A DNA stretch of 64,000 bases from a virus (lineage: Duplodnaviria; Heunggongvirae; Uroviricota; Caudoviricetes; Demerecviridae), in IMG/VR virus record IMGVR_UViG_2974599810_000001, positions 7,425 to 71,424 of that record; one strand, 5' to 3'. The position numbers and the translations under genes are program-made. Each line of letters begins with the position of its first letter. Position 1 is the first letter of the stretch. Shown in pieces: positions 1-59,515 of this stretch. Under the pieces are notes generated by a model. It worked only from the letters and a program-made list of their open reading frames with translations, was not told the DNA's origin and made no database searches.

Positions 1-13
1 TATTAATTCCGTC

Positions 14-190
14 ATGAAATTAATTATTAAATATGGTGGCGCGGAAATAATTGGCAATAAAGCGGTAATATACGCAAACCGATTAAAACAGCTTGTTTAT
101 ATTCCTGATAGTACCCGATGGGATGAATATGCTATCTTGCATGACGAACTGAAACGATGTTTCAATGTTGAATCCTTACAGGTAGTTTAG
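14..190 (+). CDS. small hypothetical protein (58 aa from first ATG; open frame continues to window start so may be 5'-partial)
   Basis: Stop-free frame from pos 2 to TAG at 188-190; followed by a rho-independent terminator. Confidence 0.4.
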   Translation: MKLIIKYGGAEIIGNKAVIYANRLKQLVYIPDSTRWDEYAILHDELKRCFNVESLQVV

Positions 191-202
191 TGTAAAGTTT
201 TG

Positions 203-232
203 TAAAGGTCGCCTTTTATGGCGGCCTTTTTT
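203..232 (+). terminator. rho-independent terminator (GGTCGCC..GGCGGCC stem + TTTTTTGTT)
   Basis: GC hairpin followed by T-run seen directly; lies inside the N-terminal part of track ORF 218..526. Confidence 0.6.
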
Positions 233-295
233 GTTATAATGCCTTTACACCAAAACGGTGGATTGAAAATTTTCCCAAAAATTTGGAGGCTTAAA

Positions 296-526
296 ATGGT
301 TGCTTATTCTTCTGCTAGTCATCTGTTTACCGCTCAAGGCTGGGTGTCTAACCGCGTCATCATTCATGACATGGTGCAGGAGTTCGGCATTGCTAAAACT
401 TATAACACCATCCAAGAACTATACAACGCCGATAAAATCGATCAGCAAACGGCTGGCTTTTTGCTGGATACCCTGAAAGCGGAACACTGTACCAAAAAAC
501 AAGCGGCAAAAATTGTTTTAATGTAA
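296..526 (+). CDS. hypothetical protein (76 aa)
   Basis: In-frame ATG at 296 preceded by GGAGG RBS; the upstream part of the listed ORF is a terminator plus TATAAT. Confidence 0.55.
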   Translation: MVAYSSASHLFTAQGWVSNRVIIHDMVQEFGIAKTYNTIQELYNADKIDQQTAGFLLDTLKAEHCTKKQAAKIVLM

Positions 527-575
527 TTAATAACGGGGCGTTACTTTCGCCCCACTAACTAGGGGAGTATTACAA

Positions 576-758
576 ATGGTTATTTTTCGAGCTATTCTGG
601 CGGGTATCTTGGGCGCTATTTTGACTCTTTTCGCCACCGCTTATGGTATTCAGGATTCCTACTGCGGTCTAGTAAATACAAAACCAATGGTTACTATTGG
701 TGCTGGCATTGCTGTATTTTCTTATCTGCTGGGCTGCATGACTAGTAAAGGAGAATAA
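576..758 (+). CDS. small membrane protein (60 aa, hydrophobic)
   Basis: RBS GGGGAG 7 nt upstream; two hydrophobic segments. Confidence 0.5.
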   Translation: MVIFRAILAGILGAILTLFATAYGIQDSYCGLVNTKPMVTIGAGIAVFSYLLGCMTSKGE

Positions 759-760
759 AA

Positions 761-973
761 ATGATCCGCAACGTTTCTCTTGCACGTTCGAAAGGCTTTA
801 AGCTGGTGGATGTTAACACGTTCGAGCGGGAAGATTGTAAAATCGAATATGTAGCACGTAACAAAAATGCCTTTCGTGTTACCGAGAAAAAATTTGATAA
901 GCGCGGCAACGTGATCGCTGAAACGGTTAAACACTTTGCCACCTTTTACGCTGCGTTTCGTGGGGTACTATGA
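761..973 (+). CDS. hypothetical protein (70 aa)
   Basis: RBS AAAGGAGAA upstream of ATG. Confidence 0.5.
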   Translation: MIRNVSLARSKGFKLVDVNTFEREDCKIEYVARNKNAFRVTEKKFDKRGNVIAETVKHFATFYAAFRGVL

Positions 974-1110
974 AAAGCGTTATCGTTATTGCCCTTGCAA
1001 TGGTTGGCGGTTTTACCGCCACCTTATTCAAAAATGACCCCATTTCGTTGGGGATCTTTATGTTATTATCTGGCTATCTAATTGGGAGGCTGTCAAATGG
1101 TTATTTATGA
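970..1110 (+). CDS. small hydrophobic peptide (46 aa), ATGA-coupled to the upstream gene
   Basis: ATG overlaps the TGA stop of 761..973; translated by hand; below the size cutoff of the ORF track. Confidence 0.3.
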   Translation: MKSVIVIALAMVGGFTATLFKNDPISLGIFMLLSGYLIGRLSNGYL

Positions 1111-1441
1111 GGGCAATCGTTTTGTTGCTAATTGCCGCCCAGCATTATTAGCAAACTATTTGAATCAGCTTTCACCAGCTTATAAGGGCGTTATTAATAT
1201 TTATGAGGGCAAGGCGCATTATAAAATCAATGCGGTCGTTGCCCGTGAACTAGCATTTCAATTTTTAACTTTTGCATCTTGTGACGTTCAAGTTATGGGT
1301 GAAGCATTAATTGCAGAAAATGAAGATGATTTTATTAATATTTTCCGCAAAGTATGCACTGAGCGCCTGATAATGAAAGGCGCGTATATTCAATCCACTG
1401 CGGATAGTATTGAAACAGCGTTTCGAAAGGTGGCGCAATGA
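1097..1441 (+). CDS. hypothetical protein (114 aa)
   Basis: ATG at 1097 preceded by GGGAGG; same frame as listed 1082..1441. Confidence 0.5.
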   Translation: MVIYEGNRFVANCRPALLANYLNQLSPAYKGVINIYEGKAHYKINAVVARELAFQFLTFASCDVQVMGEALIAENEDDFINIFRKVCTERLIMKGAYIQSTADSIETAFRKVAQ

Positions 1442-1653
1442 GTGAAATTACTTGGAATATGTTGCTAAAGGTTAAACGGGTAAAATTAACACAGGATTTA
1501 TGGGGAGTAGGTAAAATAGGGGATGTATTCAATGTATTTAAAGACGCTCATCATAGATTTATAAGAAGAAATAATAATACTGGCACAGCGTTTTATTTAA
1601 TTGATTTAATCAAATTATATGGTGAGGATATTTTCGAGCTAGAATATGAGTAA
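1438..1653 (+). CDS. hypothetical protein (71 aa)
   Basis: ATGA overlap with upstream stop; RBS AAAGGTGG. Confidence 0.5.
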   Translation: MSEITWNMLLKVKRVKLTQDLWGVGKIGDVFNVFKDAHHRFIRRNNNTGTAFYLIDLIKLYGEDIFELEYE

Positions 1654-1705
1654 CTATATAATTTTGGTGTATTGCAATGAGATTATATAGTAACGGAGCG
1701 TTATT

Positions 1706-1900
1706 ATGAGCAATAAAATTGTTGTAACCAAAATCAGTACAATGGTTGATGTTTTTTACGTGCCCGATACGCCTGAGAATCGGCAAGCGGTCGAGCGTGG
1801 CGATTATGATAAAGTGATTTATGATCACGATGGGTATTATCAGCATTTGGTGGATTCCTACGGGGAGGAGGAAAAAATCACGCATCGACTACCAGACTAA
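1706..1900 (+). CDS. hypothetical protein (64 aa)
   Basis: RBS ACGGAG upstream; last gene before the non-coding repeat region. Confidence 0.5.
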   Translation: MSNKIVVTKISTMVDVFYVPDTPENRQAVERGDYDKVIYDHDGYYQHLVDSYGEEEKITHRLPD

Positions 1901-1939
1901 TAATCACGGGGCGCAACTATCAGGAAGTGCCCCCAATTC

Positions 1940-1962
1940 TCAAATGAGAATGATTCTCATTT
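1940..1962. promoter_or_regulatory. perfect palindrome AAATGAGAATGATTCTCATTTG (operator-like; loosely Fur-box-like)
   Basis: Exact inverted repeat seen; related half-sites AAATG(A/C)GAAT recur at about 2296, 2355, 2401 and 2437. Confidence 0.5.
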
Positions 1963-2139
1963 GACCGCGCCCGCGATGGTTAGCCTGCTAATGATTAGGG
2001 TGTTACGTGTAGCCTTGTGTGATCGTTAGCGGGCTAACTAATTTTCAAGCCTCCTCCAATTTTGCCCTTGTTTTAGTATCCCCACCAAAATTAAACGCGT
2101 TAGAATGCGATCTAGGACGTTTTAGCGGTATATTAGAAT

Positions 2140-2275
2140 TATCCACTGCGTAGGAATACTGTGTATTTATACAGTAGGATAAGCTGTGGATAAGTCTGTT
2201 AATAACGCCTCAAAATGGCTAGGATTTTGTCAAGTCAAATCGTGCTGTTAATAAGTCTGTGGATAACTTAAATAA
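2140..2275. promoter_or_regulatory. cluster of three DnaA boxes (TTATCCAC(t), TGTGGATAA x2) with duplicated flank TTAATAAGTCTGTGGATAA
   Basis: Two matches to the E. coli DnaA-box consensus TTATCCACA (as TGTGGATAA) and one near-match, within 140 bp, seen directly. Confidence 0.6.
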
Positions 2276-2289
2276 TAGTGTTTCTCACT

Positions 2290-2465
2290 TCCATTCTTAA
2301 ATGCGAATCATTATCATTTGTATTTCACTATCTAACTAATAATCATTCCACTTTTTAAATGAGAATCGTTTCACTTCCTGAATAATTTTCGTTTCACTTT
2401 CTAAATGCGAATTATTATCATTCTCATTCCGCTTTTTAAATGAGAATGATTCTTATTATCATTCG
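2290..2465. repeat. array of about 5 AAATG(A/C)GAAT(C/G/T)ATT half-site repeats (GATAAT/ATCATT-rich, Fur-box-like)
   Basis: Direct repeats seen in sequence. Confidence 0.5.
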
Positions 2466-2471
2466 TATTTA

Positions 2472-2493
2472 GCGCAGGGCAATTGCCCTGCGC
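2472..2493. repeat. perfect GC-rich palindrome GCGCAGGGCAATTGCCCTGCGC
   Basis: 22-nt exact inverted repeat. Confidence 0.6.
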
Positions 2494-2499
2494 TTTTGT

Positions 2500-3110
2500 G
2501 CAAATCCGACATTGCTCCACGGGTGTTACGTGCGGGCGTGTATGTGCGAATCCGACAATTTTTGGTAGTGTGCAAATCCGACCCGAAAAATTTTTATAGT
2601 GTGCGAATCCGACAATGAATTTTCCCAAAAACTCCAGCAATCTCGAACTGCGTTCGAATCCTGTGGGGTATGTGCAAATCCGACATGGTTTTTCTAGGAT
2701 TAAGATGTGCGAAACCGACAAGATTTTTGTGACTCCGATTGGAGGATGTGTAATTGTGTGAGTTTGGAGAGAAGTTGAGAGAGCGAGAGAAAATTAGGGG
2801 AGAAGCTAGAGGGGCGCATGTTTGGTGCGAGGCACCCGATTTGCGGGGATTTTGGGGAAGAGTTGAGATAATTTGGGTTAATTGGGCTTGGGGCGAGATA
2901 AAGTAAAATTTTATTAGCAAAATGGGGCAAAATAGCTTGACAAGTGAAAATTTCTGTGGCTCTAAAAACTCAGGCAATCATGGGCCTTCGGCCCGAAATA
3001 ATGCTGCCATTTTCAGGAGATTATATATTCCTAAAAACTTAGGCAATTGTGCAAATCCGACCATAAATTTCTAGAAATACAATGTGCAAATCCGACAATA
3101 AAATCCGAAA
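2500..3110. repeat. iteron array: about 9 copies of TGTGC(A/G)AA(T/A)CCGAC(A/C) with irregular spacing
   Basis: Copies at about 2501, 2553, 2577, 2599, 2671, 2706, 3048, 3082 and 3090 seen directly. Confidence 0.6.
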
Positions 3111-3129
3111 ATGTGTTTTCAAAAAATGT

Positions 3130-3225
3130 CTCCTAGAAATAACCGCCCCCCCCATAACCGCCCTGTATTAACCGCCTAGTATATGTTCCTAGAAACTTAG
3201 GAGAACCGCCCACTAGAAGTGTGGT
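3130..3225. repeat. (A/T)AACCGCC iterons (4 copies) and CCTAGAAA/CTAAAAACTYAGGCAAT repeats
   Basis: Seen in sequence. Confidence 0.45.
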
Positions 3226-3575
3226 ATTTCGTGAGAACTCTGGGGTTTCTAGGAAAGTGTATGTGATCCTAGAGATGGAGAGCGGCAACAGGTGTATCAT
3301 CTTGAATGTAAATTATGTGGACAAAAGTTTTACCTTTTATTTAAATAAAAGATCCCCCAATCTCGTAAGTCTGCTGCTCTAGGCGTTCAAGATCTGTATG
3401 CTAATCCCGTGAAAACTGCTGCAGAATACATCCTAACGCCAGGGGCGCTGGTGTACTCTTCGAGTTGGGATAGCAATAATCTTGTTGCCTAGAGCTAAAA
3501 ACAGAAGTTGTTTTTAATCTATGAGATTATTATAACATGTGCCTTAATGAGTTGTCAAGAAGATTTTGTTAACGT

Positions 3576-4307
3576 TTATTCCTTCCGCTTGTATTTGAGA
3601 ACGATACCCTTCGAGACCATGAAGAGGAAAGTTGCAAGATAGGAATGTGGGGATTTTAGCGCATCATAATCTACAGTTCCGAAAGAACCTTCGCCAAATA
3701 CCTCAGAGTTCTCAAATGTAGGAAGTAAACGTGCCAATCCGACAGCTCCTATAATCTTAAAGAATTGATCCCAGTCATTTAACATTGCTTTATGCGCAGA
3801 CTGTAAGATTAATGGCATCTCTAAGTTCTTTTCGAGACATAGATGAACCTGCGCAATCGTAGAAGCAATCCCTAGCAACACTTCATCTTTTGTATAAGGG
3901 AATCCAGTATCTTTTCTTTGGAGTCTAGGAAGATGATCATATTCACAACGTTTAGGTGGGATGAACTTTTCCTCAGGATATAATTCTAATGCAACTCTAA
4001 CGTTTCCCTCTTTAAATACTGGAAGTTCCTGATCTGCAAAGACATGATATGAATCTGCCTTGAACCCTACAATCTTATCACCAACAGAATTGATGATCTT
4101 TCTCATTGCAATATAAGAAGGGGATAGAGTTACGAATTTTTCTTCTTTATTATATTTAACAACTCCAGCTTCTGTATAAGCTGCGGGATGAAACTCAGAA
4201 CAGAATGCTACTGCATGAGCTTCATCAGGAGTTAGTTCAGAAACACATTTGCCGTCTGCATTCTTAGCCAGCTTAATAATAGTCTTTAAATTCTCACTAA
4301 TACTCAT
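3576..4307 (-). CDS. hypothetical protein (243 aa)
   Basis: Long ORF; TAATG-type coupling to the downstream gene. Confidence 0.55.
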   Translation of the reverse strand: MSISENLKTIIKLAKNADGKCVSELTPDEAHAVAFCSEFHPAAYTEAGVVKYNKEEKFVTLSPSYIAMRKIINSVGDKIVGFKADSYHVFADQELPVFKEGNVRVALELYPEEKFIPPKRCEYDHLPRLQRKDTGFPYTKDEVLLGIASTIAQVHLCLEKNLEMPLILQSAHKAMLNDWDQFFKIIGAVGLARLLPTFENSEVFGEGSFGTVDYDALKSPHSYLATFLFMVSKGIVLKYKRKE

Positions 4308-4308
4308 A

Positions 4309-4692
4309 TTAAGCCTCCTGAACTTTGTCTTCCGGATAGAAATCTTCTAGTGAATTGTAGTGAGCAGTAAAGAACTCAAAACTTAAGTAATCAGCAGTAT
4401 TCTGGATGTAACGCAGTTCATTAATAAAAGACTCTTTGAAGATCTTACGATTAGGTTTGAGCTTTATGATTTCTTCTACCAAAATCTCTAGGATCTTTTT
4501 TGCATCTTCAACCTGAGGTACAGCTAAGGCTTGAGATTCATAGATTACTTCATCCACTCCATTAGTAACTAAAGATACTTCTATGATTATTCCCTCCTCT
4601 TCTGGATGGACTCTATTTGCATCCAGCTCACGAATGATAACACGAGTTTGACTAGTTATTTGACGATTTAATGCGATTGTGTAATGTAACAT
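4309..4692 (-). CDS. hypothetical protein (127 aa)
   Basis: ORF with RBS-like GGAG upstream. Confidence 0.5.
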   Translation of the reverse strand: MLHYTIALNRQITSQTRVIIRELDANRVHPEEEGIIIEVSLVTNGVDEVIYESQALAVPQVEDAKKILEILVEEIIKLKPNRKIFKESFINELRYIQNTADYLSFEFFTAHYNSLEDFYPEDKVQEA

Positions 4693-4763
4693 AATTTCTC
4701 CTAATATGCCTCCCCTGTTAAAAGGTCTGGAGAGGCGTAGACCTATAAATTAGTTAACGATCT

Positions 4764-5381
4764 TTATTGATCTTTTTTACTCTCGTTAATAGCAGCTCCC
4801 AACGCTTCAAAGATAGCATCACTTACACTCCCAGGCTTAAGATTATTAAAGTGAGTAACATAGATGGGACTTCTAAAACCCTTAGCATCCGCAGGTGCTA
4901 CGCTTCGCATATCAGATTCAAAAGCTTCTTGAGTATGTTTCAACTGTACAGAAGGGCCGTAATCTTCCGCAAACTTATATGACTGCGTACTACTTACCAC
5001 ACCCCCACAAGGAACATTGTGCATATCCGACATTAATCTTTTATCGGAGTTATTCAGCATTGAGATTGTCCCTGACTGCCACGGATCTCTAATAGTCACT
5101 GGAGTACTAGGGCGGTTCACCTCAGTCTTCACAAGTTTGTACCCTGCATCGATTAATGCGTTAATTAGATTATCAGCTGGGATGCGAGCCTTACCAAAAA
5201 TCTTACGAGCATCTTCGAGCTTACCTTCAAAATCTTTACACGCGCTAAGGTCGGTGTGCGCAAATGTTAGCTTCATAGATTTAAATTGTACAGTAGCAGT
5301 TAAATCTTTAAAGCTATAATCCCATGTGTTCAGTTCATGATCTGGCACTACTTGAATAGATTGTTGCGCATTAAAAGTCAT
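4764..5381 (-). CDS. hypothetical protein (205 aa)
   Basis: ORF; ATGA overlap with the next gene. Confidence 0.55.
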   Translation of the reverse strand: MTFNAQQSIQVVPDHELNTWDYSFKDLTATVQFKSMKLTFAHTDLSACKDFEGKLEDARKIFGKARIPADNLINALIDAGYKLVKTEVNRPSTPVTIRDPWQSGTISMLNNSDKRLMSDMHNVPCGGVVSSTQSYKFAEDYGPSVQLKHTQEAFESDMRSVAPADAKGFRSPIYVTHFNNLKPGSVSDAIFEALGAAINESKKDQ

Positions 5382-5566
5382 TATTTATTCTCCAGTTTGT
5401 CTAACAGTTTATGGGCTGCTAGATTATATTGTTTGAGTTCACGATTAAGGATTTGGTTTTCACACTTTAACTCTAGATTCTTGTTGTTAAGAATATTGCA
5501 GATTAGTAGAAGTGCTAGTATTAGTAACAGAGAACCTACGAGCATTAAAAGAAAAAGAGTTTCCAT
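5381..5566 (-). CDS. small membrane/coiled-coil protein (61 aa)
   Basis: Hydrophobic N-terminus LLMLVGSLLLILALLLI. Confidence 0.4.
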   Translation of the reverse strand: METLFLLMLVGSLLLILALLLICNILNNKNLELKCENQILNRELKQYNLAAHKLLDKLENK

Positions 5567-6030
5567 TATTTTATCTCCATTCTTAACTTTGAAAACTTAT
5601 TATACCAAACTATATGATTATCGTCAATTACAAATTTATGATAACATGCTGGTACGGTATAAGTTCCATAATCCGTGACACGCTGCACAACCTTGTGTGC
5701 GCACAGTCGACAACCATGCCCTTCTAAATGAGATCTAGCAGTTTGCCAGTAATAACCCTCATGATCTGGACAATAGATCTCGACTTGCTGTTGCATTGTT
5801 TTGTAATTTACACGCTCATATCCAAAGAAAGCTCCATGAACTGCAACAGCTTTCTTGATAAATATAAGGTTTAGTGCTTCTTGTTGAAAGTCGGGATGTA
5901 GCTGTTTAATCTTAGTTCTATTAATAGATCCATCCGATTTGATAAACCTATTTATTGGGAAGTTGTTAGCTTCCTCGATTAGTAATTCATTTACTTTTTC
6001 TCTCATAATATACACAAAAGGCCAGAACAA
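5566..6030 (-). CDS. Cys/His-rich putative zinc-binding protein (154 aa; possible nuclease-like)
   Basis: CPDHEGYYW..HLEGHGCRLCAH motif cluster. Confidence 0.45.
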   Translation of the reverse strand: MFWPFVYIMREKVNELLIEEANNFPINRFIKSDGSINRTKIKQLHPDFQQEALNLIFIKKAVAVHGAFFGYERVNYKTMQQQVEIYCPDHEGYYWQTARSHLEGHGCRLCAHKVVQRVTDYGTYTVPACYHKFVIDDNHIVWYNKFSKLRMEIK

Positions 6031-6046
6031 TTAAGCCCTGGCCTCT
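6021..6046 (-). terminator. rho-independent terminator (GGCCAGG stem, T-run on minus strand)
   Basis: Hairpin plus TTTTGTGT on minus strand downstream of 6051.. Confidence 0.5.
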
Positions 6047-6050
6047 AGAA

Positions 6051-6422
6051 TTAATGAAGTTGTTTACCACTTCTTAAAATAGTGGCCGTTTCCATAAGGT
6101 TTAACGTTGTATCGCGCTTTTTGATTTGTTTGTCGAGTTCATCGGTACGTTTGCCAATGTAAGCGTTAATAGCCATATTCATAGCTGAGGCGAGGTCTTC
6201 TTTGGTTATCTCTTCATCATCTAAAGCTAATTTAGCCAAAGAATCGAAAGTACTAGAAAGTCCTATAAGATCAGAAGCTTCACCGGCCAAAATAGGGTTA
6301 ACATTATCTATTGTTACTTCTAACATGGAGTTAACAATATCTTCACCGTCTACTAGACCAGATTCAATATTACTCTCCCATTCCTTCATCTGCTCCAGCA
6401 ATGGATTTTTCTTTTCTGTCAT
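6051..6422 (-). CDS. acidic hypothetical protein (about 123 aa; start moved to MTEKK with RBS AGGAAAC)
   Basis: Internal Met with good RBS; the listed 6488 start would overlap the neighbour by 119 nt. Confidence 0.45.
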   Translation of the reverse strand: MTEKKNPLLEQMKEWESNIESGLVDGEDIVNSMLEVTIDNVNPILAGEASDLIGLSSTFDSLAKLALDDEEITKEDLASAMNMAINAYIGKRTDELDKQIKKRDTTLNLMETATILRSGKQLH

Positions 6423-6831
6423 GGTAGAGGTTTCCTGTGTCAGTTGGTAAGAAGGACGATTGAGCTTTAGGTGGATGTTGTTTAGCAATCCAGTTAAGAA
6501 TCAGTACACGACTAGGAACAATATCAGTGTTGTGCCAGAAATCATGAACCCATTGACGAGCATCCTCAAACTTACCAAATTTATATGCTTTCTTAAACAA
6601 TTCAAACCCAAAACAATCTGGTGTAAAGTCTACTTCACGATATTGAACTACTTTAGAACCAGTTAGATCTTGGATCGCTGCATTAATTTCTGTATGCGAG
6701 AATTTTGTTTCGTGAAACTTATTAAAGAATCGGTAGTTGAAGCGTCCGTTCGTTTCGACAAACAACTGGATGAAGAGATCGTTAAATTGGTTATCAAACC
6801 AGTAATTCTGTAGTTGTTGTAGTGCTGTCAT
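6370..6831 (-). CDS. hypothetical protein (153 aa)
   Basis: ORF; overlaps the downstream gene start by about 50 nt. Confidence 0.45.
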   Translation of the reverse strand: MTALQQLQNYWFDNQFNDLFIQLFVETNGRFNYRFFNKFHETKFSHTEINAAIQDLTGSKVVQYREVDFTPDCFGFELFKKAYKFGKFEDARQWVHDFWHNTDIVPSRVLILNWIAKQHPPKAQSSFLPTDTGNLYHDRKEKSIAGADEGMGE

Positions 6832-7028
6832 TTACGAACTCCGTTAATTGCCACGATGATGCCTTCGTACATAAAAGGAAGTAGTCCAGAAGTGTAGAAG
6901 ATATTTTCTGTTATTCCTAGATGTCGAAAAAATATATTAAATAATGCTATTAGAAATACAATCTGAGGCAGTAATACAAAATACTCAGTTACAATCTTTG
7001 GTGCCTGATAAACAAGACGTTTTATCAT
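6828..7028 (-). CDS. small membrane protein (66 aa)
   Basis: Hydrophobic; ATGA overlap. Confidence 0.35.
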   Translation of the reverse strand: MIKRLVYQAPKIVTEYFVLLPQIVFLIALFNIFFRHLGITENIFYTSGLLPFMYEGIIVAINGVRK

Positions 7029-7127
7029 TGTTTTTAAGTCTCCTTATTACTTTGGCCTGCTCCACAATAATAAAAACTGCAAGCACTAATAGTGCTAATA
7101 GCCCCGCAGTAATTGGTACTAAATCAA

Positions 7128-7454
7128 TCATGGGAGACGCCATACGTAATTAGCTGTCTGTAGGATCTTAGGTGTGTCATCACTATACATTACTACAGAC
7201 TTTGGTGAATAGCTATCAGCTAGTTCTTTACGAATCATTTCACACTCTTCACCAGTATCAATATTTTTAACTATCACTTTCATATTAAGTGGTGTTAATA
7301 CAGAAAGTGGTTTCCAGGAGTCCTCAATCTCAATTCCTACCTTTTTCTCAATTATCATGAGAACTTCTAATGTATCATCCGGAATACTAATATTATTATT
7401 CACAAACTGTAATATCTCATGTAAGGTATTTAATTCATTAAAATTAAGCTTCAT
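7128..7454 (-). CDS. hypothetical protein (108 aa)
   Basis: ORF. Confidence 0.45.
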   Translation of the reverse strand: MKLNFNELNTLHEILQFVNNNISIPDDTLEVLMIIEKKVGIEIEDSWKPLSVLTPLNMKVIVKNIDTGEECEMIRKELADSYSPKSVVMYSDDTPKILQTANYVWRLP

Positions 7455-7689
7455 CTTTAAGAATATCCTCTACCATATCACAAGACTGTTGCAATTCATC
7501 AGCAATACGTTTAATATCGGTTTTTGTTACTTTACCAACTAACATCACCAGTAACATAGAAAAGATAATAAGTGGAACTGGAATAATAAATAATGCTACC
7601 TTAACAACATTCTTTGGCGTCCATGTATGGTATTTAGTGACTAGTACACCAACCACAATCAAATAAAATGCGAGAATAAACATCATCAT
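7444..7689 (-). CDS. membrane protein (81 aa, two TM segments)
   Basis: Hydrophobic segments. Confidence 0.45.
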   Translation of the reverse strand: MMMFILAFYLIVVGVLVTKYHTWTPKNVVKVALFIIPVPLIIFSMLLVMLVGKVTKTDIKRIADELQQSCDMVEDILKDEA

Positions 7690-7967
7690 TTTTTAATCTC
7701 CGTAATTATCTGTGCACGCATTACTTTATTAGGTAATTTTGTATTCCCAGCTATTGCTTCAATATTGTTTAGTTTTTCTTTTAGAATATCTGAGCGTCTC
7801 TGTGCTAGTTCAATATCTTGTTCTTGTTCTATTAAGCGGCCGTGAAGTCCACTATTAGTAATAAGCATACTCTCCATATTTTTTCGTATGCTTACAATAC
7901 CAATAATCCCACCTATAGCTACTAGTGTCATAAGCACTAGCAATCCAATGAGAATTTCTGTAATCAT
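7686..7967 (-). CDS. membrane-anchored coiled-coil protein (93 aa)
   Basis: N-terminal TM plus coiled coil; ATGA coupling on both sides. Confidence 0.45.
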   Translation of the reverse strand: MITEILIGLLVLMTLVAIGGIIGIVSIRKNMESMLITNSGLHGRLIEQEQDIELAQRRSDILKEKLNNIEAIAGNTKLPNKVMRAQIITEIKK

Positions 7968-8500
7968 TTATTTAATTCCTCTAAAGTAGGTAAGGGTTTT
8001 GTATGATCAAAAGTTTCTATAACAGCAGTAGGCCCATGTAATTCTAACCGTAGCTCGTTAGCTCTTTTAACCGCTAATTCTAAATCTAGGTAATCAAAGA
8101 GTCCGCCATACACAGGTTTTTTATTAATATCTTTATTTTGTACTTGCCATTTTTGGGCAGCTTTATGCCAAGAGATCCCTAAATAACCTGAGTTACTATA
8201 GCTAGTTCTATTTTTGTTATTTTCACTAGAAGTAATATCTCTCAGGTTATCCCATCTATTATCCCATGTAATCCTATTTTTATGGTCAACTTCTTCGGGA
8301 ATTTTACCCTCCATGTACAAAAAGGCCAGTCGGTGAGCTTTATACCTTTCCCTATCGATACCTATGATAATATATCCATCTTTATCTGATGTTCCAGCTA
8401 CAGAGCCTGCCTTAGCTCGGCCTCTGCTCACTCTCCTAATAAATTCGCCCGTTTCCGGGCGGTATTCAAATAGTTCTTTTAATCTTTCTTGTGTTAGCAT
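7964..8500 (-). CDS. HNH homing endonuclease with AP2 DNA-binding domain
   Basis: HRLAF..VDHKNRITWDNRWDNLR (HNH_3) and GYLGISWHKAAQKWQ (AP2). Confidence 0.75.
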   Translation of the reverse strand: MLTQERLKELFEYRPETGEFIRRVSRGRAKAGSVAGTSDKDGYIIIGIDRERYKAHRLAFLYMEGKIPEEVDHKNRITWDNRWDNLRDITSSENNKNRTSYSNSGYLGISWHKAAQKWQVQNKDINKKPVYGGLFDYLDLELAVKRANELRLELHGPTAVIETFDHTKPLPTLEELNK

Positions 8501-8790
8501 TTTTTCTTTAATTGCTTAACTTCACGCTCAAAGCTAGCTGCTCGGCGTTCTGCCACTGCTTGATGCTCCTTAGCAAAGCGTGCCTCTTGTTTTGCTAAGT
8601 TAAAGGCCATAGCGTTCTTGTTAAGGGAATCATACATCTTCTTCATTGCTGGAATAGACATTTTCATCAGTTGCCCCTCAAATCCTTGCATATCGAGGAG
8701 AATCGCTAATACATTGGCCATCTCAGTCTTAGTAAGGTTAGAGGCGTCGAAGTCTTTAGTCATGTTTTCCATTAGAATTTCCTCTCTCAT
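8494..8790 (-). CDS. hypothetical protein (98 aa)
   Basis: ORF directly downstream of a conserved early promoter. Confidence 0.5.
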   Translation of the reverse strand: MREEILMENMTKDFDASNLTKTEMANVLAILLDMQGFEGQLMKMSIPAMKKMYDSLNKNAMAFNLAKQEARFAKEHQAVAERRAASFEREVKQLKKKC

Positions 8791-8804
8791 TAATTTATGA
8801 ACTT

Positions 8805-8833
8805 ATTATACAGAATTTTAAGGCTTAAAGCAA
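8805..8833 (-). promoter_or_regulatory. conserved early sigma70 promoter (TTGCTT-17-TATAAT) with conserved leader TTTATAAATTGATGAGAGG
   Basis: -35/-10 hexamers with 17-nt spacer on minus strand; member of a family repeated more than 25 times. Confidence 0.65.
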
Positions 8834-8850
8834 CTGAATTTTTTAATTAC

Positions 8851-9282
8851 TTACCAATCGTTAACAACGCCGGAGAACTCAGAAGCAAAAACTTTTTCAA
8901 ATTTCTCTGCAATTTCAGGATGATCTTTGCAAATCAGCTCAATACAGGCTTCTGGAGTCATTCCTTCATCTTCAGGATCACCATAGTATTTATCCCAAAG
9001 ATCATCAGGAATGATATGCTCCGCCAAATCTTGGAAAGAGATTAACTGATAACGTTCTGCCTCCTCAGCGACAAGAATTTCGCACAGATCTTTATCTATA
9101 TCGCTACGATAATCCGCAATTAATAGGGCATTGCAAGCATGACATTCCCAGACCATCAAACGTTCAGAGATGGGGTTAGACTTATCTTGAACGTAAGACT
9201 GGAACAAGGTTCGGAAAGTCGCCTTAACTTGTTCAAACTTATCTGCTGCTGCGAAAACTAGAGCTTTATCAACTTTGTTCAT
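8851..9282 (-). CDS. hypothetical protein (143 aa)
   Basis: ORF downstream of the promoter at 9313. Confidence 0.5.
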   Translation of the reverse strand: MNKVDKALVFAAADKFEQVKATFRTLFQSYVQDKSNPISERLMVWECHACNALLIADYRSDIDKDLCEILVAEEAERYQLISFQDLAEHIIPDDLWDKYYGDPEDEGMTPEACIELICKDHPEIAEKFEKVFASEFSGVVNDW

Positions 9283-9312
9283 TTTTATTCCTTCTCATCA
9301 ATTTATAAAGTA

Positions 9313-9341
9313 ATTATACAGAAACTTAAGCATTTTAGCAA
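9313..9341 (-). promoter_or_regulatory. conserved early promoter (TTGCTA-17-TATAAT)
   Basis: Hexamers seen on minus strand. Confidence 0.65.
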
Positions 9342-9449
9342 ATAAAACTTTTAATTAAAATGCCTAATCCTGTACCAATAGCAATACAAATGATTATAAG
9401 TATTGCTATCGCTTGTACGATTCGTTTAATAATAGCCTCAGCTATATAC

Positions 9450-9971
9450 TTAGACATCTAACATCCAACTAGTTTTATCATGAGAGGTGTACTTACCACT
9501 CATGATGTCTTCCAGACGTACTGGTGATTTTGCATACTCGACACAAACGTTAATATAACGAGGATCCCCCATTAGCTCAAAGTGAGTATGCCCATGTAAG
9601 TTCTTCTTACCTCTCAGCTCCCCATGGTGTATTGGGGCATGGGAAAGCCAGAAGTTTTTATACTTAACTAGTGATTGTACGTTATCTACAATCCCTATTA
9701 AGTCTTTGAAAGATAATCCTTCTCGTTCTAAGTCGTGGTTTCCCAAAACTAACGTAGTTCTAACATTGCCAAAGAGTTTTTCGAACTTCTCCAAACCATT
9801 TCTAGATACAAATGCGTCTCCTAAAATATAGAATACTGTACGCTTATCTTTCACGGATGTAATAGTATCCATAATAAATTCGTCATGCTCTTCCATAGTA
9901 GAGAAGATTGGTCTGAATTTAGTAATATTTGCATGCCCCAAGTGGAGATCACTCCAAAAGCGAACTTTCAT
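9450..9971 (-). CDS. calcineurin-like metallophosphoesterase
   Basis: Motifs DLHLGH, GDAFVSR, GNHD, GHTH. Confidence 0.7.
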   Translation of the reverse strand: MKVRFWSDLHLGHANITKFRPIFSTMEEHDEFIMDTITSVKDKRTVFYILGDAFVSRNGLEKFEKLFGNVRTTLVLGNHDLEREGLSFKDLIGIVDNVQSLVKYKNFWLSHAPIHHGELRGKKNLHGHTHFELMGDPRYINVCVEYAKSPVRLEDIMSGKYTSHDKTSWMLDV

Positions 9972-10846
9972 TAAAGAATCCTCTGTACACCGCAGCTATC
10001 TTCCCGGAGTGTAGTAAATGTGGTGATTTTGCCGGTTTCATCATTAACTTGCGCAACCGTCAACTGCCCGTTGAAAACACCGCCAGTATCAAGATAAACA
10101 CGGTTTTTATAGAGAAGTGGGTAAGGAACCCCAGTATGTCCGTGAAATACGAAATCTACCCCTTTAACCTCTGGCACTTCTACCATGTATTTTTCTTTAA
10201 ATCCTGCATAACGCTGGAAATACGGGTGTTCCTCACCGTTTTTGGACAAGTAGAAGCCTATTTCTTGGATTACATCTCGATCCCATAAATATGGCTCAAT
10301 ATGGTATCCAGGATGATCATGTGGGTCTTCCTTAGCTGCTTCTACTTGTGCAATAAGATTATCCCATACTGGGGTTTCTACTTCATTACCGCATTCTTTG
10401 TATGTAAAAGGTACACCACCGTGAACAACACCAAATTTCTTACCACGATGTCTAACAGTTAGGAATATTGGCATTTTTTCAGCCATATCTTCGGCAATAT
10501 TTTTAATGGTGTCTGCATCCAGCTCATTCATAGCCCACATACCACCGTTATACATCCAATTAGCCCAATCTCCTACAATCATAAATTGGTCATGATTACC
10601 ACGGACACTGATAAAACGTGGATTATACAAGAATTTGGCTAAAACTTGTAAGTTTTGTGTGCCTCGATCAATTAAGTCACCAACACATACTACACAATCT
10701 TTTTTGCTATTATACCCAGCTAATTTCAACGCATCTTCTAGTAAATCGTTGCATCCATGAATATCACCAACGAAAAACAGGTTGGCGTCATCTGGCACTA
10801 CTAGAGTTTTATGTACATTAAATTCTTTTTTCATAATTATTCCCAA
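9971..10846 (-). CDS. Ser/Thr protein phosphatase (PPP/lambda-PPase-like)
   Basis: GDIHG, GDLIDRG, GNHD signature motifs. Confidence 0.85.
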   Translation of the reverse strand: MGIIMKKEFNVHKTLVVPDDANLFFVGDIHGCNDLLEDALKLAGYNSKKDCVVCVGDLIDRGTQNLQVLAKFLYNPRFISVRGNHDQFMIVGDWANWMYNGGMWAMNELDADTIKNIAEDMAEKMPIFLTVRHRGKKFGVVHGGVPFTYKECGNEVETPVWDNLIAQVEAAKEDPHDHPGYHIEPYLWDRDVIQEIGFYLSKNGEEHPYFQRYAGFKEKYMVEVPEVKGVDFVFHGHTGVPYPLLYKNRVYLDTGGVFNGQLTVAQVNDETGKITTFTTLREDSCGVQRIL

Positions 10847-11082
10847 ATAACAGTTAAAATAGTTGTGCCATAATCATTAGATAGTTGGAGAGTATAACCT
10901 TCTTTATATAGAGCTTTTATAGCTTCATAACTAATTTCATCACGATTAAACTGTACAAAAGAACCCCCAATCTCCACAGAAGAAACTATTCTCTTTTTAA
11001 CGTATTTATATGGTTTCTTTCTACTCTTAAGGAGTGTAGCTCTATTTATCCTGGCTAAACGTTTTGCTTGTTCCGCTAACAT
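10837..11082 (-). CDS. hypothetical protein (81 aa)
   Basis: ORF. Confidence 0.45.
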   Translation of the reverse strand: MLAEQAKRLARINRATLLKSRKKPYKYVKKRIVSSVEIGGSFVQFNRDEISYEAIKALYKEGYTLQLSNDYGTTILTVIWE

Positions 11083-51267: not shown

Positions 51268-54057
51268 GTGTTTTCTATCCTCCAAGGTCACGCCGGGTTT
51301 TCTCGTGATTTAGCAACAGGTATTTGGCGAGAAATCAAAGCGGAAGATTATACCTTTGCCAAACGATTCTCGAAAGAGCATCCAGAAGGTAAACCAGCTT
51401 CTATGCCCTTCAAATTTGATGTAATAGAAGAGCACGACCCACAAAGCCTTGCCGAAATGTTACCACTTATGAGACGTTTAACGTCTGACCCTCATATCGT
51501 TGCGATACGAGGTCGATGTCTTGCACCTAAAAATAATGTGCGACGTAAGAAAGGTAACTTTAATGTATCCAATCCTAGCAATATTATTGCTATGGATGTG
51601 GATGGTATCCTAGATACCGGTGGGTACGACAAGTTTAATCTTGTAGGTATGGCCCGCCACATTATTAAGATGTTGAATAGTATTAGTGAGGACATGTTTC
51701 CTCTTGATGCAGGGTTTATTGCTCATGCATCGTCTTCGGCTGGCCTAAAACCAGGTATCCGAATGCACTTAATGCTAGAATCTAACGTCAAGGTAACTCA
51801 AGGTCAGTTAAAGTTCTTATTTACGTCTATCAATGATAGTAGTAAGCAAAAATTCGGTTTTGATATTGCCGACTTAGCTTATTATTCATCTGTCCAGCTT
51901 CACTATTTTGCCGACCCTTTATTTAGTGATGGTATTGTTGATCCGTTTAAAGCGGAGAGTAAGCCACGTCTGGTATATGTTAAGGGTTCGAAGGTAAATT
52001 TGCCTAATAATCTGGTTGACTATGAAACAACTAGAGGTGAGTTTAAGGAGGAGTTTTACTCTTTACTCGATCAAATTAAAGGCAAAAAGATTGCTTCTGA
52101 TAAAGTAGAAGAAACCATCAGCGAATTGGAAGAAGCTGAGGATGGGGTATACTTGCGTATTATCCCCAAACTATACCATAGAGCTTTGGAGGATGGTGTT
52201 GATTTTGCATGGCTAGAACGTGAAATTAAACCCGCTTTGTCTGAATATATTGCAACTAAAGATAACAGTCGTAATATTCAAGATTACTTTAATAACGGTC
52301 GTAAGCAGGCTCTCAAAGCGTTTGTTAATAATTCTAAACGTGAGATCCCATTAAATCTGAAGGGTGTTCCACTCAAGAAATTAGAAGTGGATTCTCCACC
52401 AGAAGTTCCATACCTGAAGATTAACATTGTGCCCCCAAAAGGCCATATAACATTTGTTAAGGCAAGTCTTGGTACTGGTAAAACTACGGCAGTAACTAAA
52501 TGGCTGGACGCAGGTGTTCTTCCTGGCAACTTTTTAGCAGTTACAAATACTAGAGCGCTGGTATCTTCAAATGCTAAGAAATTTAGCGCAGGACAATATG
52601 ATAAGTCTGTAGATATGCTCAACTTTAAACGTGGAGCTATTGATCGTATGTCTACAACTATTCACTCTTTGCATAAGTTCAAAAGTTTTATTGGTCAAAT
52701 AGACACCATCTTTATTGATGAATGTGACGCTGTAATGAATGATCTATTATTCGCCCCAGTTGTTAAACAACGTCGCGAATGTATTCAAGTTCTACGTGAC
52801 ATCCTCATGACAGCTAAAACTGTAATTCTATCAGATGGTGATATTAGTGCCGAAACTATTGAAGCATATGGTTCTCTAATTGATTTTGATAAACCAGTAG
52901 CATTTTATAATCATCATCGTAAAATGCTGTCAAAAGCTCATGCTTATGAGTTCCCTGATGAATCCAGTATTTGGGTTGCACTTCAGACTTCTCTAGAGAT
53001 GGGTGAGAAATCTATCTTAGTATCTGACTGTGGGCCGGATGAGCTGAATGAGAAGGGCATGGCATTGCGTCGTAATACAGGTGCGTTAGTTAAGGAAATC
53101 CACTCAAATTCTACATCGGATGTAGATATTCGACGTATTCTGGATTACACAACTAATGAGCTAATTGATCAACAAATTGATTGCTTATTATGTAGTCCAT
53201 CAGTAACTAGTGGTGTTGACTTCAACTATTTTGATAACGTATTCGTTATTACTAGAACCAGCAACCAAGCGCCAAACATGCGTTTTCAAGCAATCAGGCG
53301 CGACCGTGGCGCTCAGAACATTTATTATTTTATTGATAAATCTACGAGTGGATTCTCCGCAGGTTCTGAGCAATATAACATTGATGAAGGTTGGCTGGAG
53401 TTAGCACAGCAATTATACGCACGTCGTAGAGAGCTGGAATCTAGGAACTATACTAGTACTTTACGTTATTACTTGCTTGATCAGGGTGCAACTATTGATA
53501 TTTTCAGTGAAAGCTGGGGAACTATCGAAGGTGCTGGGAAGGAATATACGGAAGAGCGAATCAAAGCTATTTTATATTCAACCCCTGATTATTGTGCTCC
53601 ACGCCATGCTGATGCGTATGAAGCTAAACTACTTCTTGTTCGCTATTATCATCTTGAGTCTATTAAAGATGTAACAGTTGAGCATGTTGAACAGTATATT
53701 AAGGATAAACCGAATGATCGAGCTGCATTCTTTCATAAGATGCACGAGATGTTCTGGGAAGATATTAAGAAGTGTTCAAATGTCACTATCAAACCATTCA
53801 TAGAAGCTCTGAAAGGTAAGAAGAAAGATTTCTTCCTTAAAACAGGTCAGAGTGCTAACCCAAAATATGCCAGAATGTATCTTGGTATGATGGGTATTGG
53901 TAAGGATATGAACACGGAGAATATTGTAGACTGGTACAGAACCTATTGTAAAATCGAGTGTATGCCAATCCCGTATAAGTTTATGACTGATGAGGAGAAA
54001 CATATGCATGATGAAGCAATGGCAGAGCTAGGTGCTAGAAATGACAGTGAAGAATAA
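51268..54057 (+). CDS. large SF2 helicase-like protein (929 aa), replication-origin-binding-protein-like
   Basis: GTG start with CAGGAG RBS; Walker A SLGTGKTTAV and Walker B IFIDECDAV in the central region. Confidence 0.6.
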   Translation: MFSILQGHAGFSRDLATGIWREIKAEDYTFAKRFSKEHPEGKPASMPFKFDVIEEHDPQSLAEMLPLMRRLTSDPHIVAIRGRCLAPKNNVRRKKGNFNVSNPSNIIAMDVDGILDTGGYDKFNLVGMARHIIKMLNSISEDMFPLDAGFIAHASSSAGLKPGIRMHLMLESNVKVTQGQLKFLFTSINDSSKQKFGFDIADLAYYSSVQLHYFADPLFSDGIVDPFKAESKPRLVYVKGSKVNLPNNLVDYETTRGEFKEEFYSLLDQIKGKKIASDKVEETISELEEAEDGVYLRIIPKLYHRALEDGVDFAWLEREIKPALSEYIATKDNSRNIQDYFNNGRKQALKAFVNNSKREIPLNLKGVPLKKLEVDSPPEVPYLKINIVPPKGHITFVKASLGTGKTTAVTKWLDAGVLPGNFLAVTNTRALVSSNAKKFSAGQYDKSVDMLNFKRGAIDRMSTTIHSLHKFKSFIGQIDTIFIDECDAVMNDLLFAPVVKQRRECIQVLRDILMTAKTVILSDGDISAETIEAYGSLIDFDKPVAFYNHHRKMLSKAHAYEFPDESSIWVALQTSLEMGEKSILVSDCGPDELNEKGMALRRNTGALVKEIHSNSTSDVDIRRILDYTTNELIDQQIDCLLCSPSVTSGVDFNYFDNVFVITRTSNQAPNMRFQAIRRDRGAQNIYYFIDKSTSGFSAGSEQYNIDEGWLELAQQLYARRRELESRNYTSTLRYYLLDQGATIDIFSESWGTIEGAGKEYTEERIKAILYSTPDYCAPRHADAYEAKLLLVRYYHLESIKDVTVEHVEQYIKDKPNDRAAFFHKMHEMFWEDIKKCSNVTIKPFIEALKGKKKDFFLKTGQSANPKYARMYLGMMGIGKDMNTENIVDWYRTYCKIECMPIPYKFMTDEEKHMHDEAMAELGARNDSEE

Positions 54058-58708: not shown

Positions 58709-59468
58709 ACTGAACTGGAACGTAGAAGGTGTAACCGAGTCTCTGAAAGCAAAAGCCACTGCTCTGGGTGTTGCTGTAATCTCCCAAGAACAAGTAGCTG
58801 CTATCGCTGCTGAACTGGCTGCTGAAACTGGCAAAGATGTTACTGCTCGCTCTGTTGGCTCTAAACTGCGTAAAGAAGGTTTTGAAGTACAGAAAGCTAA
58901 CGAAGTACAGAAATCTCCGTGGACTCCTGAGCAGGAAGCTGAACTGGTTGATTTCCTGAACGCTCATGCTGGTCAGTATACCTATGCTGAAATCGCTGCT
59001 GCTGTAGCTGGTGGTCAGTTCGGTGCTAAACAGGTACAGGGTAAGATCCTGAGTCTGGAAATGACCGCTTCTGTTAAACCAACTGAAAAAGCTGCTGCTG
59101 TTCGTTCCTTCACTCCGGATGAAGAAACTGATTTTGTTAATCAGGTTGTTGCTGGTGCTACTATTGAAGCTATCGCTGCTCACTTCGGTCGTAATATCAA
59201 GCAGATCCGTGGTAAAGCTCTGAGCCTGCTTCGTGAAGGTCGTATTGCTGCTATGCCGGTACAGGAAACTTCAAGTGCTAAAACTCGTGAAGATCTGTTA
59301 GAAGGTCTGGATCTGGTTAACATGACTGTTGCTGAGATCGCTGAGAAAACTGGTAAGTCTGAGCGTGGTGTTAAATCTATGCTGTCTCGTCGTGGTCTGG
59401 TTGCTAAGGACTATGATGGTGCCGCTAAGCGTGCTAAACTGGATGCAAAAGCTGCGGCTGCTGAATAA
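58701..59468 (+). CDS. abundant-looking DNA-binding protein with four tandem HTH-like repeats (255 aa)
   Basis: Four repeats of the type (V/I)AAIAAxxGxxxxxVxGKxLSxxRxG; very host-optimal codons (CTG, GCT, CGT, GGT); followed by a strong terminator. Confidence 0.6.
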   Translation: MSKLNWNVEGVTESLKAKATALGVAVISQEQVAAIAAELAAETGKDVTARSVGSKLRKEGFEVQKANEVQKSPWTPEQEAELVDFLNAHAGQYTYAEIAAAVAGGQFGAKQVQGKILSLEMTASVKPTEKAAAVRSFTPDEETDFVNQVVAGATIEAIAAHFGRNIKQIRGKALSLLREGRIAAMPVQETSSAKTREDLLEGLDLVNMTVAEIAEKTGKSERGVKSMLSRRGLVAKDYDGAAKRAKLDAKAAAAE

Positions 59469-59477
59469 TCTGGTAAA

Positions 59478-59515
59478 TTAAACCTAAGGGGAGGGGGCTA
59501 TGCTCCTTCCCCTTT
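59478..59515 (+). terminator. rho-independent terminator (AAGGGGAGG..CCTTCCCCTT + TTTT)
   Basis: Seen directly. Confidence 0.7.

Follow-up and report, generated by a model that had tools for sequence, protein, structure and literature searches.

A gene-free, repeat-rich region of Salmonella phage L6jm as the probable counterpart of the T5 injection stop signal

Introduction

Why should a phage genome hold about 1.7 kb of DNA without genes, packed with repeats, between two blocks of genes? The question is raised by positions 1901-3575 of a 64,000-nucleotide window (the whole stretch of DNA analyzed here, positions 7,425 to 71,424 of IMG/VR record IMGVR_UViG_2974599810_000001, a virus of the family Demerecviridae), where DnaA boxes, iterons and palindromes crowd together. 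A sequence-only reading of this interval had noted that T5-type phages are reported to carry, near the end of their first-step-transfer DNA, a repeat- and DnaA-box-rich region proposed to pause DNA injection, and had placed beside that idea a replication origin and a sponge for host proteins. Comparison with related phages leaves little doubt that the interval is the copy, in Salmonella phage L6jm, of what is called Repeat Region 3 or the injection stop signal (iss) in the T5 family, comprising the right end of the terminal repeat, its junction at 2962 and some 600 bp of unique DNA.

The two-step transfer of T5 DNA has been known since the 1960s. According to published work on T5, entry halts at ~7.9% of the genome without phage protein synthesis, no halt occurs when T5 ejects its DNA into FhuA proteoliposomes, and the phage proteins A1 and A2 are needed for entry to resume, A2 being a DNA-binding dimer required for second-step transfer.

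Results

The interval is collinear with the T5 injection stop region

All 1,675 bp of the interval match L6jm (MN956514.1), a T5-like phage of the genus Tequintavirus, family Demerecviridae, at 100% over record positions 9325-10999; a window position is the L6jm record position minus 7424. The interval is present twice in the L6jm record, and window 2962 is the counterpart of that record's right end (118452, ...ttctgtggctc). This makes record 1-10386 the left terminal repeat (LTR), 10,386 bp long. Window 1901-2962 lies inside the terminal repeat, and hence within the first-step-transfer DNA, and 2963-3575 is unique DNA. When the interval was used as a query, related sequence was found in ~450 phage records, 151 of which cover at least 80% of it, and nearly all of the matching records are T5-like phages of Salmonella and Escherichia. 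With the core of the region as query, a more sensitive search brought the number to 548 records, among them T5-like phages of Klebsiella that match in part.

In a pairwise alignment, the interval is collinear with T5 (AY587007) from ~9190 to ~10800, with a mean column identity of 84%. The AY587007 record annotates palindromes, inverted-repeat (IR) and direct-repeat (DR) elements and a nick at 7.9% in the homologous stretch, and 28/29 of the T5 features annotated within 9194-10409 map onto window coordinates, with only copy 9 of DR D missing. A second T5 record, AY543070, labels the homologous stretch (misc_feature 9140-10149) 'injection stop signal (iss)'. In a preprint comparing 25 T5-like phages, Davison (10.1101/866236) describes a 'Repeat Region 3' that lies mostly in the LTR and overruns it by 270 bp; the elements listed for it are paired DnaA boxes 3 bp apart, two 66-bp DRE repeats, nine DRD repeats and palindromes, and its inverted partner sits in 'Repeat Region 2'. 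We find in L6jm the sequence features that mark the T5 type: the location, the collinearity, the DnaA/DnaA* pairs, the inverted partner, the DRE and DR C repeats, palindrome J, the DR D series and the A1 and A2 genes. The suggestion of a T5-type region near the end of the first-step DNA is thus borne out by the match to L6jm, the position relative to the repeat, the collinearity with T5, the iss label and the anatomy given by Davison, and alignment to T5 and its terminal repeat places the region at the right end of the LTR.

Location, collinear sequence, named elements, the nucleotide at which the repeat ends and the upstream inverted partner are all common to the T5 iss and L6jm. The two phages differ in the number of DR D copies (8 in L6jm, 9 in T5) and in the DR B boxes, which are both perfect TTATCCACA in L6jm, whereas only one is perfect in T5 (TTATCCCCA in copy 1). 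L6jm also has a perfect 25-nt palindrome and a terminator-like hairpin at 1908-1964 that T5 is without, and the hairpin cassette downstream of a leftward promoter is of a different type from that of T5. The region has already been described in the T5 family, and its rediscovery in L6jm adds nothing by itself.

For the finer comparisons below we aligned L6jm with T5, AKFV33, chee24, S116, Seafire, IrmaTschudi, poul149, phiR201 and oselot, ten phages that represent Tequintavirus and Epseptimavirus. In this alignment the non-coding blocks, namely IRD'-IRC', palindrome J together with DR D1, the series of DR D copies and the stretch around the repeat end, are nearly invariant across the two genera and far better conserved than the neighboring open reading frames (ORFs). 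The coordinates of all elements are collected in Table 1.

DnaA-box pairs face an inverted copy upstream

The three DnaA-box matches seen in the sequence-only reading are all present, two of them perfect and the third reading TTATCCACT. Each perfect box is paired with TTATTAACA at a distance of 3 bp, and the two pairs mirror one another, with TGTGGATAA-gtc-TGTTAATAA at 2185-2205 and TGTTAATAA-gtc-TGTGGATAA at 2246-2266. The module that holds them is one arm of a 132-nt inverted repeat, 77% complementary, formed between record 5669-5800 and record 9583-9714 (window 2159-2290). The inverted partner lies 3.8 kb upstream, outside the window, and carries three perfect DnaA boxes on the opposite strand. 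The positions of the DnaA boxes are conserved in all ten phages. Across the terminal repeat (11.2 kb), boxes with at most one mismatch number 12 against 2.9 expected, a count that 0/200 shuffled sequences reach.

An AT-rich palindrome array at the estimated boundary resembles Fur sites

Beside the DnaA-box module lies an AT-rich array, the AAATGAGAAT units of which, at 2295-2464, correspond by transfer of T5 features to DR C1-4 and palindromes E-I. About five half-site units had been counted from the sequence, and we find exactly five copies of AAATG(A/C)GAAT, starting at 1942, 2299, 2357, 2403 and 2438. The perfect palindrome that had been reported also exists, but at 1940-1964 it is 25 nt long (12-1-12) and not 22 nt; its core, TGAGAATgATTCTCA, agrees with the 7-1-7 consensus for Fur at 12/14 positions.

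We scanned the whole 64-kb window, position by position, with the 19-bp Fur consensus. The highest scores are 16/19 at 2442-2460 and 15/19 at 2407-2425, a site at 2297-2315 reaches 14/19, and half of the sites with at least 14/19 (4/8) fall within 1946-2460. The T5 shear point, estimated at 9618, aligns with window 2445. Sites of this quality are a property of the family, with 2-6 Fur-like sites of at least 14/19 per ~200-bp array in each of the ten phages. A distant Klebsiella Sugarlandvirus has eight Fur-like sites in its array, one of them at 17/19.

The fhuA gene, which encodes the T5 receptor, is regulated by Fur and offers a yardstick. On the same scan the fhuA promoter region reaches at most 14/19, against 14-16/19 for the phage sites. 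Each of the 11 related phages examined has, at the estimated boundary, AT-rich repeats that match the Fur consensus as well as this promoter region does. The 12-mer ATAATCATTCTC is common to S116, IrmaTschudi and the fhuA promoter, and TAATAATCATTC is common to L6jm and the fhuA promoter. With sites at 16/19, 15/19 and 14/19, the earlier remark on Fur-box-like sites holds at the level of sequence. Unlike Fur operators such as the fhuA iron box, these candidate sites overlap no downstream gene's promoter. We found no promoter of an iron-regulated gene overlapping the array, only weak promoter-like matches (9/12 hexamer positions), and what comes after the array is a terminator-like palindrome and no gene. 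The searchable literature yielded no paper that connects Fur with the stop signal of T5. Elsewhere in the repeat, a perfect Fur 7-1-7 consensus, TGATAATCATTATCA, occurs inside the dmp gene at L6jm record 219-233.

Hairpins, a nick-site homolog and the repeat end

Two hairpins, one at either side of the modules described above, look like terminators for rightward pre-early transcription. The first, at 1908-1934, matches in position a terminator annotated in T5 as palindrome C. The second is the perfect GC palindrome noticed in the sequence, which is indeed present at 2471-2494 and is annotated as a TransTerm stem-loop in the AKFV33 record. A simple terminator scan called 0 sites in the region: the hairpin at 1908-1934 was not among its calls, and palindrome J was missed by one T. 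Palindrome J is also homologous to the T5 feature 'major single-stranded nick 1, 7.9%', at window ~2486-2493. The 'repeat end' that PhageTerm gives for Seafire corresponds to window 2492, at this nick-site homolog, which suggests that a nick was read there as a terminus.

Beyond the nick-site homolog, a G-rich tract leads to the repeat end, which is spanned by the most conserved block of the region. The 26-mer GGGCCTTCGGCCCGAAATAATGCTGC (2982-3007), just outside the repeat, is identical in 10/10 aligned phages and in 25 T5-like stretches from IMG/VR. A separate 14-mer search of IMG/VR gave mostly chance matches and was not used. The repeat CTAAAAACTYAGGCAAT, one of two further families that the sequence-only reading had listed, occurs twice, at 2962 and 3031; the other, AACCGCC, occurs four times at 3139-3211.

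Same-strand 15-mer iterons flank the repeat end

The repeat family described as about nine copies of a 14-mer, TGTGCAAATCCGACA, is real, but its unit is a 15-mer, and eight copies with at most two mismatches are present, all on the plus strand. With up to three mismatches the whole window contains 12 copies against 1.55 expected, and 0/100 shuffles reach 12. Near-copies also stand within the minus-strand early genes, at 3730-3744 (CGTGCCAATCCGACA, two mismatches) and 5018-5032 (TGTGCATATCCGACA, one mismatch), both on the plus strand and oriented like the eight.

The DR D copies with the core TGTGCAAAT (2497-2720 and 3048-3097) hold ATTTGCACA on the minus strand. This sequence is one mismatch from the relaxed DnaA consensus TTWTNCACA and is oriented like the two perfect boxes, and the TGTGCGAAT variants have two mismatches. 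The DR D iterons might therefore be weak DnaA sites. Seven yCTAGrA motifs cluster at 3071-3269 (e.g., TTTCTAGAAA and TCCTAGAAA), several of them invariant across the ten phages, and the 500-bp bin 3000-3499 has nine CTAG sites, the highest count in the window.

Gene content of the interval and its flanks

No ORF within the interval is conserved in the ten-phage alignment, where all frames other than 2922-3074 are frame-shifted or stop-ridden, and the description of the interval as gene-free therefore holds. The L6jm GenBank record annotates a 50-aa ORF19 at 2754-2906; its frame is broken by indels and stops in relatives, and we rejected it as a gene. The records of other relatives annotate different, non-homologous ORFs in the region, and T5 records annotate none. 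The frame at 2922-3074 (plus strand, 50 aa) crosses the repeat end and is open at equal length in 8/10 phages. Its variable columns at codon positions 1/2/3 number 16/20/22, its ATG is lost in T5, and no Shine-Dalgarno sequence was seen upstream on inspection. Because it shows no codon-position bias and T5 is without its ATG, we reject this frame as a gene as well; it is a by-product of strong nucleotide conservation.

On the left the interval is flanked by small rightward pre-early ORFs, the last at 1706-1900 (plus strand), as the sequence-only reading had described. On the right it adjoins a leftward early gene block, the last gene of which is at 3576-4307 (minus strand); this edge is the 3' end of the block and not, as had been thought, its start. 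The flanking ORFs match only PHROG families of unknown function, and a Pfam search of ORF19 and the flanking ORFs matched no family. The terminal repeat encodes A1-type, A2-type and dmp genes. The A1-type product, of 556 aa, matches phrog_1745, 'DNA transfer protein' (E = 1.8e-244), and the A2-type product matches phrog_1725, 'DNA binding protein', with ORF7 called 'A2 protein' in the L6jm record.

Table 1. Elements of the L6jm interval in window coordinates
Feature	Position	Strand	Remarks
GC-rich stem-loop (GGGGC...GCCCC)	1908-1934	+	just after the stop of ORF 1706-1900; terminator-like
Perfect 12-1-12 palindrome, 25 nt, TCAAATGAGAAT-G-ATTCTCATTTGA	1940-1964		in the group of L6jm, AKFV33 and chee24; absent from T5
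DnaA-box-like TTATCCACT	2139-2147	+	opposite orientation to the other boxes; position conserved (TTATTCACT in most relatives)
IRD'-spacer-IRC'	2159-2290		palindrome D (2157-2176) and two DnaA/DnaA* pairs
T5 DR B copies 1 and 2 (DnaA-box pairs)	2184-2206 and 2245-2267		transferred from T5
DnaA box TTATCCACA, perfect	2185-2193 and 2258-2266	-	motif scan
AT-rich array (27-28% GC), AAATG(A/C)GAAT units	2285-2464		T5 DR C1-4, DRE1/2, palindromes E-I
Perfect GC palindrome AGCGCAGGGCAATTGCCCTGCGCT, then TTTTG (T5 palindrome J)	2471-2494	+	resembles an intrinsic terminator, rightward
DR D1-6, 15-mer TGTGC(A/G)AATCCGACA	2497, 2543, 2569, 2600, 2671, 2706	+	inside the repeat; nearly invariant in 10 phages
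G-rich, purine-rich tract, 250 bp, GC skew +0.6	2700-2950	+	leads to the repeat end; includes T5 DR A copies 2 and 3 (2849-2887)
Most conserved block of the region, 96 bp	2925-3020		spans the repeat end
Last terminal-repeat base	2962		between ...CTGTGGCTC and TAAAAACTC; L6jm record right end
CTAAAAACTYAGGCAAT, two copies	2962-2978 and 3031-3047	+	first starts exactly at the repeat/unique junction
Stem-loop GGGCCTTCGGCCC	2982-2994		in block 2925-3020
DR D7 and D8	3048-3062 and 3083-3097	+	outside the terminal repeat; ninth copy of T5 deleted in L6jm
(A/T)AACCGCC(C/T) repeats, four	3139-3211	+	interleaved with yCTAGrA motifs; CTAGAAATAACCG invariant in 10 phages
Perfect sigma-70 consensus promoter, extended -10 (TTGACA, 18 nt, TGnTATAAT)	3558-3529	-	12/12 hexamer matches
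Candidate non-coding RNA, ~180 nt	3522-3341	-	5' hairpin 3516-3496; 120-nt imperfect hairpin 3495-3376; short hairpin 3364-3349 and U-rich tail

A leftward promoter precedes a hypervariable hairpin unit

Just beyond the stop of the last early gene, a perfect consensus promoter points leftward into the interval. It is kept in 10/10 aligned phages and in 20/20 distinct sequences that we collected, and neither the L6jm nor the T5 records annotate it. The segment downstream of the promoter cannot be aligned between phage types: relatives carry at least eight sequence-unrelated types of this cassette, distributed discretely among them. The same long hairpin is nevertheless common to all types, z ranging from -3.2 to -7.4. 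In L6jm the fold has an energy of -70 kcal/mol (z = -6.6), and after correction for GC content no other minus-sense 160-nt window in the 64 kb is as stable as the candidate. The minus-sense fold beats the plus-sense fold in 8/8 types, by 4-13 kcal/mol, and the stem substitutions within the T5 type comprise three compensatory, three wobble and one disruptive change. Strand-specific stability, compensatory changes and the top rank among windows therefore point to an RNA over an inverted repeat acting at the DNA level. The short 3' hairpin has a conserved GGGGG arm followed by an interrupted U-tract, which the simple terminator scan did not call.

Searches for a known identity of this unit were negative. 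The ~180-nt segment has no conserved ORF, an Rfam scan of 1800-3700 at permissive thresholds gave only sub-threshold chance matches, and a scan of 1-8000 found no tRNA or tmRNA. No host homolog of the T5 hairpin RNA was present in 5,426 E. coli genomes, no antisense target of the L6jm hairpin stood out beyond chance in the L6jm DNA examined, and the searchable literature held nothing relevant on a T5 small RNA or transcript at the locus. We rate the unit at 3558-3341 as a good candidate, either for a structured non-coding RNA made early or for a processing element of the RNase III type.

The early mRNA of phage T7 has RNase III processing hairpins, and the VA RNA of adenovirus is a small structured viral RNA. 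The RNA predicted in L6jm is like both in joining a long irregular hairpin to a strong host-type promoter and early timing. Unlike them, the L6jm unit would stand alone, with its own consensus promoter and no downstream gene, and it comes in discrete, unrelated types. Other 160-nt windows that are unusually stable after GC correction (z about -3.1 to -3.9) lie near 51561, 31361, 11481, 20041 and 59361-59481 and may be RNA genes or terminators.

Two short records named for Listeria phages, OR849063.1 ('Listeria phage LM 4-14-1') and OR846838.1 ('LM 4-11-1'), contain sequence related to the T5-like region. In OR849063.1 the match covers the hairpin segment at 100% identity, and in OR846838.1 it covers 132 nt of the DnaA-box area at 76.5%; both are probably mislabeled or contaminant contigs.

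Discussion

A host-protein block as the likeliest brake

What could stop the incoming DNA at this point? The stop needs no phage protein synthesis and fails to appear in FhuA proteoliposomes, from which we infer that some host factor, already present in the cell, applies the brake through cis-acting DNA. Davison proposed that membrane-associated DnaA, bound to the box pairs, causes the stop. In L6jm, the left end of the genome would enter first and entry would halt once ~8% of the genome is inside; homology to T5 puts this boundary near window 2445. Host DNA-binding proteins would assemble on the DnaA-box pairs (2159-2290) and on the neighboring Fur-box-like palindrome array (2285-2464), perhaps with a bridge from this complex to the inverted copy that lies 3.8 kb upstream, and would thus create a nucleoprotein block at the membrane. 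Release of the block would then fall to A1 and A2, pre-early proteins encoded in the repeat. Among mechanisms, such a host-protein roadblock of DnaA plus a Fur-like binder is the one we favor, though tentatively and at less than even odds. Other jobs may be layered on the same DNA, which also holds the nick-site homolog: the hairpins would act as terminators, the iterons and the invariant block may be end-processing or packaging signals, and the promoter and hairpin may produce an RNA. As an explanation of the locus as a whole, the reading as a T5-type stop region has, in our estimate, a probability of about 0.8.

A more specific proposal, that Fur itself cooperates with DnaA by polymerizing on the array at the first-step boundary and thereby links the pause to the iron status of the host, strikes us as unlikely. 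The stepwise entry of T7 offers a partial parallel to the pause, since there too a leading segment enters first and early functions precede the rest of the genome. In T7, entry is continued by transcription from rightward promoters on the leading segment, whereas T5-like phages pause at a non-coding region and need A1 and A2.

Several points weigh against a host-protein block at this site. The DnaA model, by extension to L6jm, would rest on a proposal made for T5, in which the position of the iss is itself an estimate. Annotated repeat ends differ among records, falling at window 2962 in T5 AY587007, phiR201 and L6jm, at ~2755 in chee24 and poul149, and at 2492 in Seafire. Nor do DnaA boxes stand out by number in the 64 kb: perfect boxes occur twice against 0.67 expected, a count that 14/100 shuffles reach, and the relaxed consensus occurs 8 times against 7.75 expected, with no enrichment. 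We take the boxes as real because they are clustered, paired, conserved in position and enriched in the terminal repeat, and not because of their count, which alone is non-significant. The Fur-like sites, for their part, deviate from the consensus at a symmetric position, having G or C in place of T at hexamer position 3 (GAGAAT or GCGAAT against GATAAT), and they could equally be operators for a phage protein, for example the dimeric DNA-binding A2.

Phage-protein operators and genome-end signals

If the palindromes are such operators, A2 or another pre-early protein would bind them as a dimer and would restart transfer, shut off pre-early transcription, or both. The 7-1-7 palindromic units suit a dimer, and A2 is a DNA-binding dimer needed for the second step whose gene type is present here. 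The palindrome family is enriched across the terminal repeat as a whole, with 9 matches against 0.7 expected, and Epseptimavirus relatives have a related unit just upstream of a ribosome-binding site (alignment columns 240-270). Against this stands the match to the Fur consensus, which equals that of the Fur-regulated fhuA promoter region. Moreover, the pause needs no phage protein synthesis, and a phage protein would therefore explain the release and not the stop. We regard operator function as less likely than not.

The right half of the interval (~2500-3220) invites a different idea, that the iterons and the block at 2962 are recognized by the terminase or by an end-processing enzyme. Ejection begins with the left end, so that packaging should begin with the right, and a role in end formation or packaging would therefore be plausible. 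Of the eight iterons, six are inside the repeat, 240-465 bp from its end, and two are outside, 86-135 bp from it, and no other piece of the region is as well conserved as the 96-bp block across the end. The same kinds of motif recur at the extreme left of the genome, where a copy of the palindrome family, TGAGAATGAGTCTCA, at record 19-33, 19 bp from the end, is followed by TTACCGCCC at 34-42. The iterons are, however, irregularly spaced (26-71 bp), and annotated repeat ends disagree among records. Similarity between the left and right repeat boundaries (TTGAC...AAATTTC; GTGGC(C)TC), judged by eye, was too weak to claim. A genome-end function is thus another tentative reading, one that we would hold as loosely as operator function. 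Both are compatible additions to a host-protein roadblock and not true rivals of it, and a genome-end function in the right half fits with a stop signal in the left half.

Replication origin and host-protein sponge

A replication origin, at which DnaA would be recruited, the AT-rich repeats would unwind and an initiator would bind the 15-mer iterons, is very unlikely. The resemblance is real as far as it goes, for E. coli oriC and iteron plasmid origins likewise have clustered DnaA boxes, an adjacent AT-rich segment (here a 27% GC stretch) and direct 15-mers, of which eight lie here on the same strand. Unlike those origins, the L6jm region has no adjacent initiator gene (the flanking proteins are unknown-function PHROGs without Pfam matches), and its AT-rich stretch, with a terminator-like hairpin after it, seems to be built of palindromic units like those of operators more than of 13-mer unwinding repeats. 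The duplication of its DnaA-box module in inverted orientation 3.8 kb away is not origin-like either. The origins of T5 have been mapped near the center of the genome, and replication genes are absent from the first-step DNA, so this suggestion of the sequence-only reading is not supported.

The companion suggestion, a sponge that titrates host DnaA and Fur from their own targets, has in its favor that sites like those of DnaA and of Fur are densely clustered here, and is scarcely credible for a single DNA copy that would offer ~5 sites of each kind at the first step to the thousands of Fur and DnaA molecules in a cell; host DNA is moreover degraded within minutes, and relief of host regulation would therefore gain the phage little.

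What the comparison adds

The comparison sharpens the tests that can be made of the stop, since the estimated boundary coincides with a family-wide Fur-like array beside the DnaA-box pairs. It also divides the interval into separable modules, namely a stop module, a nick/terminator, iterons at the repeat end and a promoter with its hairpin RNA, each of which could be deleted singly with the reverse-genetics tools now available for T5. Two elements go beyond present annotation and the searchable literature, both as candidates drawn from sequence comparison: the array of Fur-like sites where entry is estimated to pause and the hairpin RNA unit with its highly variable sequence. Should the hairpin unit be expressed, this classic model phage family would have an early non-coding RNA not described before. 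If Fur does bind the array, it would tie the entry pause to iron in phages whose receptors, FhuA and FepA, are themselves regulated by Fur.

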